Assembly: GCA_039621445.1 (NCBI GenBank)
Contig: CP154954.1
Location: 9,426,634-9,490,633 of the forward strand
Length of the DNA: 64,000 bases
From: Euglena gracilis
Taxonomy: Eukaryota
Direction: 5' to 3'
In this document: positions 1,199-64,000 of the stretch, piece by piece
How the letters are laid out: the number at the start of each line of letters is the position of its first letter
Position numbering within the stretch: the stretch's first letter is position 1
The notes under the pieces: generated by a model
Told to the model about the DNA's origin: nothing
Seen by the model: only the letters and a program-made list of their open reading frames with translations
Database searches by the model: none
Made by a program: the position numbers and the translations under genes

Positions 1199-1550
1199 AA
1201 ACCCCCCCTCCCACTTACAAACACCCCCCCCCTCGGGCCGACCAACCAAACCGGGACCTATAACCCCCCCCCCCCCGGGGAAGAAAAACAAAGCCGTCGG
1301 GGACGATTTTTTTCGGCCACAAACCACCCAAACGCTGATTTTTTGGCAATTTTTTGAGACCGACCATCAACAAAATGCCATTTTTGACGAAACTTGCCAA
1401 AAATTGCCAATTTCGGGGTTCAGGGTCATTTTGGGGGGTCGGATCTTCACCAACAATTCCGGGACCTATAAACCCCCCCCCCTTCGGCCAACCAACCAAA
1501 CCAGATCCATTAAACCCCGGGGGGTTTATAAGTGGGAGGGGGGGGGGGTT
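1199..1550. mobile_element. MITE family A, copy 1
   Basis: TIR aaccccccctcccactta / taagtgggagggggggtt; homologous to 39153-39495 and 43315-43500. Confidence 0.75.
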
Positions 1551-1557
1551 ACATGTG

Positions 1558-2645
<1,088 letters not shown>

Positions 2646-4769
2646 ACATAAGCCAAGCGCCTGGGGGGGAGGAGGTAGGTGGCTTTGAAAATTGGGTTGT
2701 TTTTGGCACCTAGCCGTATGGCCACCCCCTGGTCGGGAGTTGTAGGTTGTGGAGTGTGTATGACCCCCCCGGTCGCGGGTTTGTAGGAACCCGAACACTC
2801 ACATGACACAAGTTCATGAAGTAAGGGTTGATGTGCGCATTTGCGCACACTAACCACATTTTCATTCGGTGTAAGCGGCGCGGCTGGTGTGTGTTTTAGT
2901 GAACATTGACCGCTCATGTATTTGTATAAAGCTGGTGTGCACATCAGCGCACACCAGCAATATGCAAACACAACTGGTTGATGTGCGAAAATGCGCACAC
3001 CAACCACTTGAAATTTGGGGATTATACTCCACATTTTTTACATCACCGCATGAAACAAAACACCTGCCTTTTTCCGTTCTAGAAGTAAAGACTGGGGTGA
3101 GATTTTGAATAGGTGCCTTTTGCAATGTGCGACAAAGAACGGTGGCTTCAAATGTACTTCGCTCTGTGTGCAAGTCTGTATGTCTCATCTCCAACCAGCA
3201 CGACAGACGTTTTCACGTCATCAGTTTGGAAGTTGCGCGGGAGAAATTGATGACGTGTAACCCTGCGTGATTGGTGGACATTTTTTCTTCAAGAACAACG
3301 ACTTCCAGAATTTCAGATTTACGCAGGTGTGATCTTCCTGATGCCTCGTCTGGGAATCATTTTCCATTTTTACCACAATGATGTCTCATTTTTTCCCCAG
3401 AAAACATGCAGCACACCGGTTTTTGTGCACAATATCAGGGTGTTGAGTCCCAGTTCTTTCACGCAACCCAACCATCTGTGAACATTAAATATTCTCTGTC
3501 TCCAGAACAGTGAGCTTTGCGGCCACATTTAAGACGCTGCCACTTTCCATTGTTTCCATCAACCCGCAGCATGCCCCTCCAGTCTGCCATTGTTGTGGGT
3601 TGTGGGGGATAACACGGCCACCTCGATGGCTGCTGCTGCATTGGGGAGTTAATGACGGCCTTGTGGATGCTTAAGTACAATCACCTATCATCACCTGATG
3701 TGAATATTGCAGCAAAACGAAAGCCAGGGGGCAAGTGGCAGAGGTCTTCGAGGTCTACCCCTTTGCCCAAGCGACGCCGCTGCACGTGTGCTGCGACGTG
3801 CTACAGGTCTACAGGTCTCAACATGGACCTACACCTGTCACTGGGCCAGAATCGACCCTTAAAAAAAAAGGCCTCGTGGTGGAGGAGAGCGTGTAAAAGC
3901 TGAAGTTGTACACCCGAAGGAGCCATTGCAAATGGTGTTTGTGGTCGTGCTTGATGTGTTCTGTCTGAAATTTTTCTATTGTGGTCGGTGCACAAAAAAA
4001 ATGTGCACGTTAACGGTGTGCATTTCGCACTCCCACGACGTGCATCTTTACGCACATGTTCGGTGTGTAAAGTGTGTCACGCCGACCACGTGCGCATTGT
4101 CGCAAACTGACCTTTTTTTTTATTCCAACGTTGTGTTTGACACAGGTGTTTTTTCAATGCATTTCTGTCTGTTTTCAGAGCAAAGTAAACCCTTCCAGTC
4201 ATCGTTATTCAGGAAAGCTCAAGGCAGAGAGACCTGTTTATGTGCCATGATACTTGATCGTGTCACTTTGCACAAATGCACATGAGTGCACACACATCGA
4301 CGGTGTGCGCATTTTCGCAAACCGACGACCGCATCTTCGTTCCCAAACTCACGGTGTTTGGGTTTGAAACAGCGTGAATCCTGGGGTATTTATGGCCGTC
4401 GTTGGGGCACCCTGGAGTGGTTGATGTGCGAAATTGCGCATATCGACATTATTTCTTTGTTCGAACCTTGGCTGCAACAAACCATTCCTGTGTGATCTGT
4501 GTGATCCCCTCTCCCGTTTCACCACCGCACAATTTGGCCGGACACATCCCCACTGCAACTTAAATAAGGGCTCGCGACCCTCCCCTTCAAACCACTTTCT
4601 CTTCACCCTGCACGGGCCTTCACAAAAACCCCGGCAAGCCCTCCGGCGTCCCTGTCCGCTGTCCGGCGACAAGTTTGGACTCACCCTAGCCCCCCCCCAT
4701 CCTTGTTCCCCGCGCTCCGGCAAACGTCCAAAACCACAAGCCCGAGGCCGGCAAAACAAAACAGTGCGT

Positions 4770-10013: not shown

Positions 10014-43240
<33,227 letters not shown>

Positions 43241-46266: not shown

Positions 46267-47331
46267 ACGGTAGACTGGGGGGGGGGGGGTAGTGGGTAGT
46301 CGGCCGACTAGTCGGCCGACTGCCCAATTGGTCGGCCGACTAGTCGGCTGACTAATTGGTCGGCCGACTAGTCGGCGGACCAATTGGGTAGTCGGCCGAC
46401 TAGTCGGCCGACTAGTCGGCCGACTACCCACTCTAATGTACTAACGGGTCAAAACCGCCGACTTTTAAGCCCCCCCCTGGGAAAAAACTTTTGTCTAAAT
46501 CACCTCAACACCAGTCAAAACCCACCCAAATGGCTCCAGAACCCCCCAATCGGGGGTGAATATGCAAAAAAAATGGGGGAAAATGTCCATTTTGGTCCAC
46601 ATTTGACAAAAGAACACCTCTCCCCATTGTATTTTCAATATAAATCGAAATTTGCACAAAAAAAGGTCTTATCCCTCCAAGTCTATTGCCAACGTAGAAG
46701 GGATTTTGTTATTTGAGGGGCGGGGTGCGGGGGGGCGGAGCCCCCCCCCCGCCTATGCCAAAGTGAGCCACAAAAACGACTTAGCCCCCGAGTATGTTGC
46801 CAACACAGAAGGGATTTTGTTATTTGAGGCTCGGATGGGGTCGGATGGGGGTGGAGGGGGGAGTTTTCTGCCTCTCGTGATGCAGAATGCTTGCATTTCT
46901 AAAGGATTTTCATGTAATCCCTGTTTCATCGTTGGTTTTTTACCCCTCCGGACCCCCATCAAGGGCCCACCGACCCCCCACCGACCAAAGATTTCCATCT
47001 GGGGGTGTTTATTTAGGCGTAAGACACTTATTTGGACCCATCCGGACCATTTCCGGGTGATTTGGGCCAGCCACAGACCATTTTTATGACCGCCGACTAG
47101 CCACCGACTAGTTTGCATTGAATTTTCTTCTTGGGGGGGGGGGCTTAAAAGTCGGCGGTTTGGACCCGTTAGTACATTAGAGTGGGTAGTCGGCCGACTA
47201 GCCGGCCGACTACCCACTACCCCCCCCCCTGTCTCGCCGACTAGCTACCGACCAGGCCTAGTCGGCCGACCAATTGGGTAGTCGGCCAACTAGTCGGCCG
47301 ACTACCCACTACCCCCCCCCCCAGTCTACCG
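46267..47331. mobile_element. TIR element with subterminal arrays of the palindrome tagtcggccgacta
   Basis: Ends acggtagactgggg(n)tagtgggtagtcggcc / ggcc.actacccactacc(n)ccagtctaccgt; long inner inverted repeat at about 46420-46480 vs 47135-47217. Confidence 0.85.
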
Positions 47332-47712
47332 TCTTGCGCCCATCTCGGCAGCCAGTGTCCATCTCCGACCAGGGGGAGGCGGTACGGTAATCTCTGGCCG
47401 GGGCCACCAAGGTCAAAAGTCTGCACGGCTCGCTGCGGCCGAACGGCCAGTGCCGACCTCAGCCAAGGACGAGGAACCGACGGAGAGCGACCGCGCCGCC
47501 GGCGTGAGGCCCCGTACCTCCGCGCCAAGGACCTACCGCCCTGGCCAAAATGGATCCTCACCGACCCACCCCTGGGGTGGCCGTCCCAAGCGACAGTAGG
47601 CGGACGCACCTTCTACGTTTGGGCCGACGGCCTCTGGGACACACGGTTCCCCTCGGAAGATACCTGCACCTGTCGAGACGGGTCTCACTGGCCTTGGGGG
47701 AAGTGCTGTCTC

Positions 47713-48537
47713 TTGCCGACGCGGAACGTCTACATGGCTGAGAAACACCAGCCCACGATACGCCTTACACCAGATGGCCGTCGCTGCCGCACCTCCCGGC
47801 TTGGAACGAACTGCTGCCCTGTCTGTTCGACACTCGGAGGAAGGGGAAGCGTGCTGACCTGCGGTGACACCCAGGTGCACCCTGGACCATGTCGTGATCT
47901 ACCTGGTGGACACCTCCCCTATTGCCGAGCGTCCACCAAGACGGGCCGAGGGAGCCTCTTGTCCTGCGGGGACATTGAAAGCAACCCAGGTCCGCCCGGA
48001 GGGAGAAAGAGGTCAGCCACATCGGTCGTCGCGTCGGCGGAGCCACCTCGCGACAGCACCAACGATTTAGCACACCCAGCAGACGACACACCCACGGCTG
48101 TGGTGGTTGACCAAAGCGGAAATAACTCTGATATCCGTCACGGCAGCCCGCTCGGAATCACCATCCCGCCCCAGCCGGCCAACCTCCAGGAGGTCCTCCT
48201 CTGCCGCGCAAACACAGTCCTTCATGTACCTGCGGCCAACCAACGTGACGTCTCCGAGACCCTCTCCGATGTCATCGCGGAATACGTCAGCAGGCCAACC
48301 ATGGACAGCTTGTTCGCCACCCTCGCTTTCCCCAAACTGGTGCTTCGGACAGTCCCAAATGCGGGACGTGAGGCCGCGGAGGACATCTCCACCGCGATCA
48401 GGCGGCGCGTCCAACTTTTCCGGCAAGGTGACTATGGAACGCTGATGACAGAGCTGAGAAACGCCACCCGACTCCCACCAGCATCCATCGAGACGCGGGC
48501 GGCCAAAAAAGCACGCACCGAGCCCGCCGCCATACCG
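47713..48537 (+). mobile_element. 5' portion of a non-LTR retrotransposon-like ORF with tandem 2A-like peptides; truncated before any RT domain
   Basis: GRGSLLSCGDIESNPGP matches D(V/I)ExNPGP; downstream TVLHVP...FPKLVL...IRRRVQLFRQGDY resembles from memory the pre-RT region of CRE-like elements. Confidence 0.7.
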
Positions 48538-48552
48538 GGGGGGTTGCTATAT

Positions 48553-49205
48553 CCTGGGGGGGGGGGGGTAGTGGGCTTCGACCATGGACGGCCCACGGTC
48601 GCTCTCGGTCGCTCTCGGTCGCTCTCGGTCGGGGGGGGGGGGGGGGGGGGGGGTGGACCGAGGTTTGGCTGAACTCGGTGGTGGGGGTCGACCGAGGGCG
48701 ACCATGGTCGACCCCCACTCCATAACCGCGACCCCCCCTTCCGAGGGGGCGACCATGGTCGACCCCCCCACCCCAAAACCGCGACCCCCCCTTCCAAGGG
48801 GCGACCACGGTCGACCCCCCCCCACCCCATAACCGCGACCCCCCCTTCCAAGGGGCGACCAAGGTCGACCCCCCCTTCCAAGGGGCGACCAAGGTCGACC
48901 CCCCCACCCCATAACCGCGACCCCCCCTTCCAAGGGGCGACCATGGTCGACCCACCCACCCCATAACCGCGACCCCCCCTTCCAAGGGGCGACCATGGTC
49001 GACCCCCCCACTCCATAACCGCGACCCCCCCTTCCGAGGGGGCGACATGGTCGACCCCCCCACCCCATAACCGCGACCCCCCTTTCCGAGGGGGTGACCA
49101 TGGTCGACCCCCCCACTCCATAACCGCGACCCCCCTTCCGAGGGGGCGACCATGGTCGACCCCCCCAATCCATAACCGCGACCCCCCCTTTCCAAGGGGC
49201 GACCG
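48553..49205 (+). repeat. About 51-bp tandem repeat gaccatggtcgaccccccaccccataaccgcgacccccccttccaaggggc, headed by a gggg(n)tagtggg end
   Basis: About 10 visible units; head resembles the TIR at 46275. Confidence 0.85.
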
Positions 49206-50102
49206 CGGGTTAGAGGGTAGGGGGGACGGGACACAAAAACGGTTTGGTAAACCAAGGGATTTTGTTATTTTGGGGCCCTCGAACAGTTGAGCAACAAAAA
49301 GGGATTTGCCCCCCAAAGCGGTTTGGTAACACAAGGGATTTTGTTAATTTGGGGCCCTCGAACAGTTGAGCAACAAAAAGGGATTTGCCCCCCAAAACGG
49401 TTTGGTATCACAAGGGATTTTGTTATTTTGGGGCCCTCGAACAGTTGAGCAACAAAAAGGGATTTGCCCCCCAAAACGGTTTGGTAACACAAGGGATTTT
49501 GTTACTTTGGGGCCCTCGAACAGTTGAGCAACAAAAAGGGATTTGCCCCCCAAAACGGTTTGGTAACACAAGGGATTTTGCTAATTTGGGGCCTTCGAAC
49601 AGTTGAGCAACAAAAAGGGATTTGCCCCCCAAACCGGTTTGGTAACACAAGGGATTTTGCTAATTTGGGGCCTTCGAACAGTTGAGCAACAAAAAGGGAT
49701 TTGCCCCCCAAACCGGTTTGGTAACACAAGGGATTTTGTTAATTTGGGGCCTTCGAACAGTTGAGCAACAAAAAGGGATTTGCCCCCCAAACCGGTTTGG
49801 TAACACAAGGGATTTTGTTAATTTGGGGCCCTCGAACAGTTGAGCAACAAAACGGGATTTGCCCCCCCAAACCGGTTTGGTAACACAAGGGATTTTGTTA
49901 TTTTGGGGCCCTCGAATGGTTGAGCAACAAAAAGGGATTTGCCCCCCAAAACGGTTTGGTGACACAAGGGATTTTGCTATTTTGGTGCGCTCGAACACCA
50001 CCCCCCCCCCCATATTGTCCCCCCCACCCCATATTGTCCCTCGGCCCCGGCCGACAGGGGGTTTTTTTGGCTCGGCCAATGAAATTTGTTTACTACCCCC
50101 AT

Positions 50103-53475: not shown

Positions 53476-53978
53476 CCCATATTGTCCCCCCCCCATGTTG
53501 TCCGGTCGGGCCTCCCGGGGGGAGGTCGGTGGGACAACATGGGGGGGGGGGGGTTGCAGTTGAGCAACAAAAAGGGATTTGCCCCCCAAAACGGTTTGGT
53601 AACACAAGGGATTTTGTTAATTTGGGGCCCTCGAACAGTTGAGCAACAAAAAGGGATTTGCCCCCCAAAACGGTTTGGTAACACAAGGGATTTTGTTAAT
53701 TTGGGGCCCTCGAACAGTTGAGCAACAAAAAGGGATTTGCCCCCCAAACCGGTTTGGTAACACAAGGGATTTTGTTATTTTGGGGCCCTCGAATGGTTGA
53801 GCAACAAAAAGGGATTTGCCCCCCAAAACGGTTTGGTGACACAAGGGATTTTGCTATTTTGGGGCGCTCGAACACCACCCCCCCCCCATATTGTCCCCCC
53901 CACCCCATATTGTCCCTTGGCCCCGGCCGACAGGGGGTTTTTTTGGCTCGGCCAATGAAATTTGTTTACTACCCCCAT

Positions 53979-59223: not shown

Positions 59224-62200
59224 CAGTTGAGCAACAAAAAGGGATTTGCCCCCCAAATCGGTTTGGTAACACAAGGGATTTTGTTAATTTGGGGCCCTCG
59301 AACAGTTGAGCAACAAAAAGGGATTTGCCCCCCAAAACGGTTTGGTAGCACAAGGGATTTTGTTATTTCGGGGCCCTCGAACAGTTGAGCAACAAAAAGG
59401 GATTTGCCCCCCAAACCGGTTTGGTAACACAAGGGATTTTGTTACTTTGGGGCCCTCGAACAGTTGAGCAACAAAAAGAGATTTGCCCCTCAAAACGGTT
59501 TGGTAACACAAGGGATTTTGTTAATTTGGGGCCCTCGAACAGCTGAGCAACAAAAAGGGATTTGCCCCCCAAACCGGTTTGGTAACACAAGGGATTTTGT
59601 TATTTTGGGGCCCTCGAATGGTTGAGCAACAAAAAGGGATTTGCCCCCAAAACGGTTTGGTAACACAAGGGATTTTGTTAATTTGGGGCCCTCGAACAGT
59701 TGAGCAACAAAAAGGGATTTGCCCCCCAAAACGGTTTGGTAACACAAGGGATTTTGTTATTTTGGGGCCCTCGAATGGATGAGCAACAAAAAGGGATTTG
59801 CCGCCCAAAACGGTTTGGTAACACAAGGGATTTTGTTATTTTGGGGCCCTCGAATGGTTGAGCAACAAAAAGGGATTTGCCGCCCAAAACGGTTTGGTAA
59901 CACAAGGGATTTTGTTAATTTAGGGCCCTCGAACAGTTGAGCAACAAAAAGGGATTTGCCCCCCAAACCGGTTTGGTAACACAAGGGATTTTGTTATTTT
60001 GGGGCCCTCGAACAGTTGAGCAACAAAAAGGGATTTGCCCCCCAAACCGGTTTGGTAACACAAGGGATTTTGTTAATTTGGGGCCCTCGAACAGTTGAGC
60101 AACAAAAAGGGATTTGCCCCCCAAAACGGTTTGGTAACACAAGGGATTTTGTTATTTTGGGGCCCTCGAACAGTTGAGCAACAAAAAGGGATTTGCCCCC
60201 CAACCGGTTTGGTAACACAAGGGATTTTGTTAATTTGGGGCCCTCGAACAGTTGAGCAACAAAAAGGGATTTGCTCCCCAAACCGGTTTGGTAACACAAG
60301 GGATTTTGTTATTTTGGGGCCCTCGAATGGTTGAGCAACAAAAAGAGATTTGCCCCCCAAACCGGTTTGGTAACACAAGGGATTTTGTTTTTTTGGGGCC
60401 CTCGAACAGTTGAGCAACAAAAAGGGATTTGCCCCCCAAAACGGTTTGGTAACACAAGGGATTTTGTTATTTTGGGGCCCTCGAACAGTTGAGCAACAAA
60501 AAGGGATTTGCCCCCCAAAAAGGTTTGGTAACACAAGGGATTTTGTTATTTTGGGGCCCTCGAACAGTTGAGTAACAAAAAGGGATTTGCCCCCCAAAAC
60601 GGTTTGGTAACACAAAGGATTTTGTTAATTTGGGGCCGTCGAACAGTTGAGCAACAAAAAGGGATTTGCCCCCCAAAACGGTTTGGTAACACAAGGGATT
60701 TTGTTATTTTGGGGCCCTCGAACAGTTGAGCAACAAAAAGGGATTTGCCCCCCAACCGGTTTGGTAACACAAGGGATTTTGTTAATTTGGGGCCCTCGAA
60801 CAGTTGAGCAACAAAAAGGGATTTGCTCCCCAAACCGGTTTGGTAACACAAGGGATTTTGTTATTTTGGGGCCCTCGAATGGTTGAGCAACAAAAAGGGA
60901 TTTGCCCCCCAAACCGGTTTGGTAACACAAGGGATTTTGTTTTTTGGGGGCCCTCGAACAGTTGAGCAACAAAAAGGGATTTGCCCCCCAAACCGGTTTG
61001 GTAACACAAGGGATTTTGTTACTTTGGGGCCCTCGAACAGTTGAGCAACAAAAAGGGATTTGCCCCCCAAAACGGTTTGGTAACACAAGGGATTTTGTCA
61101 TTTTGGGGCCCTCGAACAGTTGAGCAACAAAAAGGGATTTGCCCCCCAAAACGGTTTGGTAATGTTATTTTGGGGCCCTCGAACAGTTGAGCAACAAAAA
61201 GGGATTTTCCCCCCAAAACGGTTTGGTAACACAAGGGATTTTGTTAATTTGGGGCCCTCGAACAGTTGAGCAACAAAAAGGGATTTGCCCCCCAAAACGG
61301 TTTGGTAACACAAGGGATTTTGTTATTTTGGGGCCCTCGAACAGTTGGGCAACAAAAAGGGATTTGCCCCCCAAACCGGTTTGGTAACACAAGGGATTTT
61401 GTTACTTTGGGGCCCTCGAACAGTTGAGCAACAAAAAGGGATTTGCCCCCCAAAACGGTTTGGTAACACAAGGGATTTTGTTACTTTGGGGCCCAGGAAT
61501 GGTTGAGCAACAAAAAGGGATTTGCCCCCCAAAACGGTTTGGTAACACAAGGGATTTTGTTAATTTGTGGCCCTCGAATGGTTGAGCAACAAAAAGGGAT
61601 TTGCCCCCCAAACCGGTTTGGTAACACAAGGGATTTTGTAATTTGGTGCCTTCGAACAGTTGAGCAACAAAAAGGGATTTGCCCCCCAAACCGGTTTGGT
61701 AACACAAGGGATTTTGTTATTTTGGGGCCCTCGAACAGTTGAGCAACAAAAAGGGATTTGCCCCCCAAAACGGTTTGGTAACACAAGGGATTTTGTTATT
61801 TTGGGGCCCTCGAACAGTTGAGCAACAAAAAGGGATTTGCCCCCCAAAACGGTTTGGTAACACAAGGGATTTTGTTATTTGGGGCCCTCGAACAGTTGAG
61901 CAACAAAAAGGGATTTGCCCCCCAAAACGGTTTGGTAACACAAGGGATTTTGTTATTTTGGGGCCCTCGAACAGTTGAGCAACAAAAAGGGATTTGCCCC
62001 CCAACCGGTTTGGTAACACAAGGGATTTTGTTAATTTGGGGCCCTCGAACAGTTGAGCAACAAAAAGGGATTTGCTCCCCAAACCGGTTTGGTAACACAA
62101 GGGATTTTGTTATTTTGGGGCCCTCGAATGGTTGAGCAACAAAAAGGGATTTGCCCCCCAAACCGGTTTGGTAACACAAGGGATTTTGTTTTTTTGGGGC

Positions 62201-64000
62201 CCTCGAACAGTTGAGCAACAAAAAGGGATTTGCCCCCCAAAACGGTTTGGTAACACAAGGGATTTTGTTAATTTGGGGCCCTCGAACAGTTGAGCAACAA
62301 AAAGGGATTTGCCCCCCAAAACGGTTTGGTAACACAAGGGATTTTGTTATTTTGGGGCCCTCGAACAGTTGAGCAACAAAAAGGGATTTGCCCCCCAAAA
62401 CGGTTTGGTAATGTTATTTTGGGGCCCTCGAACAGTTGAGCAACAAAAAGGGATTTGCCCCCCAAAACGGTTTGGTAACACAAGGGATTTTGTTAATTTG
62501 GGGCCCTCGAACAGTTGAGCAACAAAAAGGGATTTGCCCCCCAAAACGGTTTGGTAACACAAGGGATTTTGTTATTTTGGGGCCCTCGAACAGTTGGGCA
62601 ACAAAAAGGGATTTGCCCCCCAAACCGGTTTGGTAACACAAGGGATTTTGTTACTTTGGGGCCCCCGAACAGTTGAGCAACAAAAAGGGATTTGCCCCCC
62701 AAAACGGTTTGGTAACACAAGGGATTTTGTTATTTTGGGGCCCAGGAATGGTTGAGCAACAAAAAGGGATTTGCCCCCCAAAACGGTTTGGTAACACAAG
62801 GGATTTTGTTAATTTGTGGCCCTCGAATGGTTGAGCAACAAAAAGGGATTTGCCCCCCAAACCGGTTTGGTAACACAAGGGATTTTGTAATTTGGTGCCT
62901 TCGAACAGTTGAGCAACAAAAAGGGATTTGCCCCCCAAACCGGTTTGGTAACACAAGGGATTTTGTTATTTTGGGGCCCTCGAACAGTTGAACAACAAAA
63001 AGGGATTTGCCCCCCAAACCGGTTTGGTAACACAAGGGATTTTGTTATTTTGGGGCCCTCGAACAGTTGAGCAACAAAAAGGGATTTGCCCCCCAAACCG
63101 GTTTGGTAATACAAGGGATTTTGTTATTTTGGGGCCCTCGAATGGTTGAGGAAAAAAAAGGGATTTGCCCCCCAAAACGGTTTGGTAACACAAGGGATTT
63201 TGTTAATTTAGGGCCCTCGAACAGTTGAGCAACAAAAAGGGATTTGCCCCCCAAAACGGTTTGGTAACACAAGGGATTTTGTCATTTTGGGGCCCTCGAA
63301 CAGTTGAGCAACAAAAAGGGATTTGCCCCCCAAAACGGTTTGGTAACACAAGGGATTTTGTTAATTTGGGGCCTTCGAATGGTTGAGCAACAAAAAGGGA
63401 TTTGCCCCCCAAACCGGTTTGGTAACACAAGGGATTTTGTTATTTTGGGGCCCTTGAACAGTTGAGCAACAAAAAGGGATTTGCCCCCCAAAACGGTTTG
63501 GTAACACAAGGGATTTTGTTAATTTGGGGCCTTCGAACAGTTGAGCAACAAAAAGGGATTTGCCCCCCAAACCGGTTTGGTAACACAAGGGATTTTGTTA
63601 TTTTGGGGCCCTCGAACAGTTGAGCAACAAAAAGAGATTTGCCCCCCAAACCGGTTTCGTAACACAAGGGATTTTGTTACTTTGGGGCCCTCGAACTGTT
63701 GAGCAACAAAAAGAGACTTGCCCCCCAAAACGATTTGGTAACACAAGGGATTTTGTTAATTTGGGGGCCTCGAACAGTTGAGCAACAAAAAGGGATTTGC
63801 CCCCCAAACCGGTTTGGTAACACAAGGGATTTTGTTATTTTGGGGCCCTCGAAAGGTTGAGCAACAAAAAGGGATTTGCCCCCCAAAACGGTTTGGTAAC
63901 ACAAGGGATTTTGTTAATTTGGGGCCCTCGAACAGTTGAGCAACAAAAAGGGATTTGCCCCCCAAAACGGTTTGGTAACACAAGGGATTTTGTTATTTTG

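Follow-up and report, generated by a model that had tools for sequence, protein, structure and literature searches.

The window examined here, a stretch of 64,000 nucleotides (nt) of Euglena gracilis DNA (GenBank assembly GCA_039621445.1, contig CP154954.1, forward-strand positions 9,426,634 to 9,490,633), contains at 47512–48537 on the plus strand the remnant of a retrotransposon, within which two 2A-like peptide units follow one another within one open reading frame (ORF). At class-A 2A peptides, the final Gly-Pro bond is not formed, the upstream chain is released and translation may resume (PMC3708506; this and most other sources are cited here from portions of their text). The frame holding both units extends from stop to stop over 47245–48672 (+), or 475 codons, and its translation is referred to as protein P0001; all features of the remnant lie on the same strand. 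The upstream part of the remnant (47512–47835; tblastn and columns 640–830 of alignment A1, described below) is conserved, may take in a doubtful tail of a Dam-like domain (the alignment there being weak), and includes a Cys-rich module, CxC...WPW..CC, at about 47677–47721, which in relatives takes the form CxxC-x4-WPW-x-C. Translation of the frame then gives unit 1 at 47836–47889 (GGRGSVLTCGDTQVHPGP), a spacer of 17 residues at 47890–47940 (CRDLPGGHLPYCRASTK) and unit 2 at 47941–47994 (TGRGSLLSCGDIESNPGP). These are followed at 47995–48537 by the start of a reverse transcriptase (RT) protein, which would begin with the Pro encoded from 47992 and which ends before the RT fingers (protein search, tblastn, A1). 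This last part comprises a linker with an invariant D-L-A(-H) motif (48061–48072; A1) and a helical N-terminal extension domain (about 48150–48537; A1 and the structural model of the relative P0007) that includes the sequence FPKLVLR. Downstream lies a breakpoint region (48538–49204; sequence and repeat analysis) of poly-G runs and a 10-nt repeat that passes into satellite DNA, a 52-nt satellite array occupying 48696–49204 in place of the rest of the element; the array is GC-rich.

Each unit is 18 residues long, and the starts of the two lie 105 nt apart. Unit 2 is canonical: its core, GDIESNPGP (47968–47994), fits D[VI]ExNPGP, the C-terminal motif of class A, and 181 further in-frame codons of homologous sequence follow it; a six-frame scan of the window found this motif in unit 2 only. 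Its upstream context, GRGSLLSCGD, agrees with that of T2A at 9 of 10 positions and retains the Leu pair and the Gly before Asp, which are among the context positions required of class-A 2A peptides (10.64898/2026.09.24.754024), and the whole unit is identical to T2A at 14 of 18 residues. The StopGo point is predicted to fall between the Gly codon at 47989–47991 and the Pro codon at 47992–47994. Unit 1 is degenerate. Three positions of its core, GDTQVHPGP, are broken, so that DTQVHPGP stands in place of D(V/I)ExNPG|P; relative to the consensus it has V for the first Leu, T for V/I, Q for E and H for N, and it matches T2A at 12 of 18 residues. The initial annotation had described two 2A-like units in one frame and 105 nt apart, one of which fitted the consensus with 14 of 18 T2A residues and the other of which kept 12 of 18 around a broken core, and translation of 47245–48672 (+) bears this out in full; the ends and the spacing also agree, the starts alone (47839 and 47944) having been placed one codon (3 nt) short of the 5′ side of each 18-mer.

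From the window's own six-frame residue frequencies, the strict motif is expected by chance 1.8e-4 times per window, and the 11 positions common to both units (GRGSxLxCGDxxxxPGP) 1.6e-8 times. The units are identical to each other at 11 of 18 residues and 31 of 54 nt, and because the two whole 105-nt repeats share only 47 of 105 nt in ungapped comparison, the duplication must be old. Two sets of chains in the PDB (7p2p_B and 8ut1_A), which belong to two recombinant proteins, terminate exactly in EGRGSLLTCGDVEENPG and match unit 2 at 13 of 17 residues (E 6.5e-4 and 2.2e-3), which together with the final Pro is the 14 of 18 match to T2A. These tails are read by us as remnants of T2A constructs, a reading that goes beyond what the PDB search result states; they can serve as an independent comparator for the skip point. 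In published substitution data, changes at D12, E14, and N16 were all inactivating except E14H in P2A, and the NPGP residues tolerated no substitution (10.64898/2026.09.24.754024), while low activity was kept with E changed to Q (Odon 2013, PMC3708506). Given this intolerance and the changes in unit 1 at V/I, E, N, and the first Leu, unit 1 is expected to be inactive and unit 2 active.

The segment 47620–48537 was compared in a full scan with 1.84 billion representative proteins, from which 116 relatives emerged at E ≤ 1e-3; the best E value was 1.9e-31, and 37 of the relatives reached E ≤ 1e-10. The strict 2A motif occurs in 40 of these and a looser form in 42; 20 carry at least two units, with a maximum of five in P0078, and the context GRGxxLL[ST]CGD is general upstream of the motif. 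At least one adjacent pair of units is separated by 22–61 residues, end to end, in 12 of the 20 multi-unit relatives, so the 35-residue spacing in the window is ordinary for the family; a second spacing class lies near 105–112 residues. Alignment A1 joins nine long relatives to the window, and all 10 of its sequences keep the G-D-x-E-x-N-P-G-P columns unchanged in the unit that adjoins the N-terminal extension. Two further searches added little: a protein atlas queried with P0003 returned generic RVT_1 clusters only (0.85–0.90), which is uninformative, and a word-indexed search with the C-terminal domain found just 6 proteins.

Motif mapping over 126 proteins, combined with Pfam, gives a single-ORF order of (2A)-DAM-WPW-2A-(Zn)-2A-POST-RT-Zn-RLE, RLE denoting a restriction-like endonuclease. 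In detail, the modules are a Dam-like domain with W-x-N-P-P-F, the CxxC...WPW..C module, an optional CxxC...H..C module, the D-L-A-H linker with the helical domain, the RT, a CCHC motif, and the nuclease. Of the 116 relatives, most of which are short fragments, 8 had a Pfam match to RVT_1 and 7 one to Dam (PF05869) at E ≤ 1e-3. Dam exceeded the Pfam cut-off in three of the eight long proteins, and P0003, P0011, and P0126 hold Dam and RVT_1 within one protein. The motif W.NPP[FYW] is present in 11 proteins; a 2A unit lies downstream of it in all 11 and also upstream in 6, in which the Dam module, having 2A on both sides, would come free as a protein of its own. Among the 116 relatives, Pfam detected no families of the tyrosine recombinase, integrase, protease, or LTR type, and no endonuclease/exonuclease/phosphatase families, to which apurinic/apyrimidinic (AP) endonucleases belong, either in these or in the eight long proteins; the ORF in the window had no Pfam match. 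In several of the 14 relatives without a 2A unit close to the FPKLxLR-type motif (counted below), Cys/His-rich N-terminal regions are fused directly. Five relatives with no 2A within 220 residues upstream of FPKLxLR (P0035, P0036, P0042, P0107, and P0116) share a conserved C-P-F-x-x-C-P...H...H followed by C-x2-C...C-x-C, a region that to us brings to mind the zinc fingers found at the N-terminus of R2.

The type of element was read from structural models and a sequence profile. P0007 was modeled from 13 sequences with a predicted local distance difference test score (pLDDT) of 80.3 and a predicted template modeling score (pTM) of 0.76, and Foldseek placed R2 first among its matches (9nl3_A, 1.5e-21; 8gh6_A, 7.3e-20), followed by LINE-1 ORF2p (8uw3_A, 1.5e-15). 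With VIA-align, LINE-1 scored above R2 (Z 24.6) over residues 89–830, the RT core, and the R2 chains reached Z 19–20 with an alignment extending to the last residue. A profile of alignment A2 against the PDB returned R2 at 9.9e-13 and LINE-1 at 2.4e-5; phmmer with P0007 alone gave weak LINE-1 matches only (E 0.13), which is why the profile and the folds were needed. The last 256 residues, folded alone (pLDDT 80.3), matched R2Tg residues 1152–1384 (Z 15.0, root-mean-square deviation 3.3, 214 aligned) and R2Bm residues 871–1106 (Z 14.4); Z fell to 6.0 at the fold ranked next, and the top 7 Foldseek matches of this C-terminal model were all R2. The fold at Z 6.0, like those of lower rank, belongs to cap-snatching and restriction-type nucleases, which we take to represent the PD-(D/E)xK group. 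Invariant columns in the C-terminal region read C-x2-C...GDH...C, RH, R-x-A-D, and D. Toward the other end of P0007, residues of about 83–260, equivalent to about 48150–48537 of the window, are helical and align with R2 and with LINE-1 ORF2p from residue 248 onward; the N-terminal extension of the RT comes directly after the 2A unit, and the alignment with LINE-1 ORF2p begins only at that residue. A non-LTR-type RT and a CCHC knuckle with a restriction-like endonuclease were found in the relatives only, as the window copy stops before the RT. Since R2 comes first in folds and profile and no AP-endonuclease family was found, the family is classified, from profiles and models, as an R2-like, RLE-bearing non-LTR retrotransposon; membership in the AP-endonuclease (APE)-type L1Tc/ingi group was rejected on the absence of an AP-endonuclease family and the presence of the R2-like C-terminal nuclease.

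Comparison with the long relatives also delimits the copy in the window. They align by tblastn to 47512–48537 in one frame without stops, those of P0002, P0003, and P0004 beginning at 47512–47602, and a regular expression for the WPW module matched in the same three proteins. An ATG at 47746 was considered as the start of the ORF and rejected, since conserved sequence extends upstream of it (tblastn, A1). At about 48537 the frame enters the poly-G runs and the 52-nt satellite exactly where the relatives go on to a linker and the RT, and repeat-derived sequence is also found upstream of 47512, beside a foldback-like inverted repeat. With no continuation into the RT past about 48537 and repeats upstream, the locus is a relic of about 1 kb without an RT of its own; the copy is dead, inert, and unable to make RT. 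It is cut at its 3′ side, which truncation during target-primed reverse transcription would not produce.

Other copies of the element exist in the genome. From two DNA sequencing runs, 152 and 203 contigs mapped to the stretch, their identities ranging from more than 99% down to less than 90%, and some contigs of other copies diverge into unlike sequence past 48516–48538; hundreds of contigs at varied identity, with divergent continuations, mean that the family is multi-copy and that the copy in the window is truncated. Among 150 copy-to-copy differences the best-supported 40 were considered, of which the 37 at or beyond 47512 were mapped onto the frame: 24 change a residue and 13 are synonymous. 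From 48150 on, six of eight of these differences are synonymous and two are not, compared with 4 synonymous of 22 upstream of unit 2. None of the best-supported 40 falls inside unit 2. Two fall in unit 1, 47863 G>C (Gly to Arg, before the Asp) and 47873 A>C (Gln to Pro), both of which lead further from the consensus and account for about 45% of the depth in one DNA run and about 80% in the other. Two RNA runs, of each of which about 5–6% was mapped, contributed 0 reads and 1 read, which is no test of expression.

The initial annotation had assigned the ORF to a retroelement, rightly, as relatives that align across 47512–48537 carry RVT_1 downstream. Its picture of an RT-encoding polyprotein must be given up for this copy, which has no RT and breaks at about 48537 into poly-G and the 52-nt satellite, and so must the placement of the units at the front of the ORF, since full-length relatives have the Dam-like domain and conserved Cys modules upstream of them. 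The proposal that the units cut short Cys/His-containing leaders off the polyprotein is too narrow, a Dam module being bracketed by 2A in 6 of the 11 Dam-bearing relatives. The suggested kinship with L1Tc/ingi gives way to the R2-like, RLE-bearing type indicated by Foldseek, the profile, and the C-terminal fold. The GRGSLL context and the tandem layout, which had been thought unusual, are the family norm: GRGxxLLxCGD recurs, and 20 of 116 relatives have several units.

Taken together, the results make it likely that 47512–48537 (+) is one truncated, dead member of a multi-copy R2-like RLE family of non-LTR retrotransposons, in the intact members of which class-A, T2A-like units partition a single ORF. 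We infer for these members StopGo activity, a role for the released products, and a stoichiometry as follows. At each intact unit, the ribosome would skip the Gly-Pro bond, setting free an upstream chain ending in ...NPG, and translation might restart at the Pro. The first product would be the Dam-like adenine-methyltransferase module with a Cys-rich tail, the second a small Cys/His peptide, or several, and the third the RT-RLE enzyme, with an N-terminal Pro directly ahead of the helical extension. Units in series would provide redundancy, fuller separation, and a buffer against the decay of any single unit, and would probably yield less RT than upstream products; a natural viral tandem 2A separated to 99.9%, as against 89–95% for single units (10.64898/2026.09.24.754024). 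In the window copy, unit 2, with its full consensus, would be the active site and unit 1 a decayed duplicate.

Several points weigh against this interpretation. The 2A activity of the units is a prediction from their sequence, and the window copy itself lacks Dam, RT, and RLE, so that its membership in the family depends on about 340 aligned residues at 35–44% identity. The presence of 2A is not universal: an FPKLxLR-type motif was found in 66 relatives, 37 of which begin too near the motif to judge, and the remaining 29 divide into 15 with a 2A unit no more than 220 residues upstream of it and 14 without one. Some of the 116 relatives were recruited by the 2A motif itself, so that the shares carrying 2A are overstated, and the ten best come from metagenome assemblies of ENA or JGI and are named just "hypothetical protein." Heterologous eukaryotic DAM domains produced no N6-methyladenine (6mA) in E. 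coli (10.64898/2026.05.21.726589). Finally, in a 2026 screen 59% of the tested 2A-like occurrences in ORF2p and 70% of those in ORF1p lowered protein abundance instead of skipping cleanly (PMC13405545). The same screen argues for an alternative in which the units are mainly translation attenuators of a "reduction class," stalling ribosomes and lowering RT output rather than cleanly separating proteins, and Odon 2013 (PMC3708506) cites a proposal that the 2A of L1Tc down-regulates downstream products. That attenuation is the main role seems unlikely to us, however, as the complete class-A consensus with the Leu-Leu cluster is kept in unit 2 and in 40 of the 116 relatives, and as T2A, in wide use as a separator, has 4 of its 18 positions different from those of unit 2; the matching PDB chains, moreover, end in ...NPG. 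Attenuation as such is plausible and compatible with separation, the two roles not being mutually exclusive.

The two other explanations considered concern the origin of the stretch. Metagenome contigs were scanned with the 2A motif as the sole pattern, which at least 596 stretches matched; four passed tblastn, and the two examined, L001 (650–3148) and L004 (3176–5698), proved RNA-virus-like and not retroelements, neither one being a full-length DNA copy of the family. In each, an RNA-dependent RNA polymerase (RdRp)-like ORF lies next to a capsid-like ORF that opens with a Cys-rich module followed by 2A, with a second unit 61 residues further on in L004, a layout that resembles that of the retroelement family. 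As GRGSL(L/T)TCGDVEENPGP with the Cys-rich module stands there before a capsid-like ORF, the stretch in the window could be imagined to be a piece of an endogenized tetra- or noda-like RNA virus bearing a T2A. We reject this as highly improbable, because homology to an RT N-terminal extension (E down to 1.9e-31) covers the 180 residues that follow unit 2, the similarity to the virus-like loci spans only the 52–97 residues around the 2A, and no RdRp or capsid homology was detected in the window near the locus. Still more remote is the possibility that the motif arose by chance or convergence within an artefactual ORF crossing GC-rich repeats, or that the locus is an assembly chimera. The surroundings would suit such an origin, in that the locus is flanked by the foldback repeat, poly-G runs, and satellites, and the long ORF reaches into repeat-derived sequence at both ends, but a chance expectation of 1.8e-4, 116 homologues, the recurrence of the stretch across independent DNA runs, in contigs that number in the hundreds, and copy differences in the post-2A domain that are mostly synonymous among the best-supported 40 of 150 make it very unlikely, and it too is rejected.

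The preferred interpretation, a truncated R2-like element with 2A-partitioned relatives, extends a known principle. L1Tc and ingi elements bearing 2A were reportedly described by Heras in 2006, as others cite that work. Class-A 2A peptides have since been listed for the non-LTR elements L1Tc, ingi, Rex1, L2, CR1, and Crack, at 40–80 residues from the N-terminus of ORF2 (PMC3708506), and all of these are APE-type elements. The present family shares with them a class-A 2A in frame, shortly upstream of the enzyme in a single long ORF and presumed to separate or throttle the RT, as well as the existence of related elements without 2A. It differs in that its members carry an R2-like nuclease at the C-terminus and lack an APE domain, in that Dam-like and Cys modules lie upstream in place of a leader of 40–80 residues, and in that the units come in series of 2–5. 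With T2A itself unit 2 has 14 of 18 residues in common, among them GRGSLL, CGD, E, and NPGP, and the family context GRGxxLL[ST]CGD[VI]ExNPGP is of T2A type; unit 2, predicted to be active, resides however in a nuclear DNA retroelement rather than in the polyprotein of an RNA virus. Multiple 2A units per genome occur in picornavirus supergroup 4 (PMC11512398), and such viral tandems, including H15A/B (10.64898/2026.09.24.754024), likewise consist of serial units, some of them 22–60 residues apart, with redundancy and fuller separation in the virus tested, but the host here is a retrotransposon and the upstream unit of the window copy has decayed.

R2 elements carry zinc-finger and Myb DNA-binding domains at the N-terminus. 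R2Bm and R2Tg (8gh6, 9dou, 9nl3) resemble the family in having an RT with an N-terminal extension, a CCHC knuckle, and a restriction-like endonuclease fold; in contrast to R2, with which identity is just 11–16%, the family has 2A-delimited modules and a Dam-like domain in place of those N-terminal domains. DAM-carrying retrotransposons have been reported with DIRS and LTR hosts, and DAM elements of E. gracilis whose RTs branch with LINE/L1-like RTs were ascribed to domain transfer, nesting, or artefact (10.64898/2026.05.21.726589). The relatives found here, though not the window copy, share with them a Dam domain of the PF05869 type with an N-P-P catalytic triplet in a retroelement, but combine Dam with an R2-like RT-RLE in one ORF, on independent contigs and with 2A in between. 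Such single, 2A-joined ORFs would be a simpler reading of the LINE-like DAM cases of Euglena, one compatible with the euglenid origin that the initial annotation had proposed. Two 2026 preprints report hundreds of RT-associated 2A peptides, mostly "non-LTR-like," and one (PMC13405545) also describes N-terminal deubiquitinase domains and a Dualen/RandI case. The main-text passages of the two mention no methyltransferase partner or RLE elements, although their supplementary tables could list family members; for PMC13405545 this covers methyltransferase, tandem, and restriction-like as terms. The main text on DAM elements (10.64898/2026.05.21.726589) makes no mention of 2A-like, NPGP, or skipping. 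Our literature search found no publication joining 2A-like peptides, Euglena, and retrotransposons, and among the matches listed only Odon 2013 pairs 2A-like with RLE terms, RLE clades appearing there as introductory background only. As far as was searched, then, the novelty lies in combining an RLE-type host, a Dam-like module, and serial T2A-type units, and in units that bracket whole modules.

The remainder of the window holds further repeats and one related fragment. Directly upstream of the relic, at 46279–47322, lies a foldback-like structure with terminal inverted repeats of about 65–77 nt that are 97% complementary, paired as 46279–46343 with 47258–47322 and 46401–46477 with 47136–47212. 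The repeats have the palindromic 12-mer TAGTCGGCCGAC as their unit, poly-G/poly-C ends, and the word CATCTCGGCAG on both outer sides. A satellite of 79 nt, with 95% matches and copy numbers of 9.6 and 4.0, occurs at 49236–49997 and 53557–53874, and at about 61796–62413, the last site being judged solely from a repeated ORF translation. A second, decayed and frame-shifted fragment at 28644–28913 (+) spans the linker that immediately follows the N-terminal extension as well as the beginning of the RT (...RPIAVG...); it was found by tblastn with P0105 and P0122 (E 1e-9), P0004, and P0009, and is closest to P0105, in which no 2A unit was found, and P0122, which has a distant 2A only. Long, imperfect (CA)n/(TG)n microsatellites at 1215–3037 and 10240–11086 yield spurious ORFs of 200–500 codons, and Rfam returned nothing at gathering score across the whole window, spliced leader or otherwise.

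Knowledge of 2A peptides in retrotransposons goes back to L1Tc; large screens surveyed them in 2026, and clade-resolved work ties them to APE-type elements. We advance more tentatively, and with somewhat less than even confidence, the broader proposal that the family represents an undescribed and widespread protist clade of R2-like (RLE) elements encoding a single-ORF cassette polyprotein, in which T2A-type units bracket Dam-like methyltransferase and Cys/His modules and free an RT-nuclease with an N-terminal Pro; that 2A let an "ancient" single-ORF retrotransposon gain and express extra proteins; and that the cassette of Cys module and 2A was exchanged horizontally with tetra- or noda-like RNA viruses. 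The virus-like contigs with a similar Cys module and 2A bear on the origin of the T2A-type context, and co-expression tools could draw on the dozens of T2A-like natural variants that the family supplies. For the elements themselves, the finding bears on the way in which a retrotransposon with one ORF, lacking a second, acquires accessory proteins and sets their dose, and on whether the DAM domains of retroelements, including the puzzling LINE-like cases of Euglena, are expressed free. If these domains are freed as proteins, the writing of 6mA by transposons would become testable with defined products.

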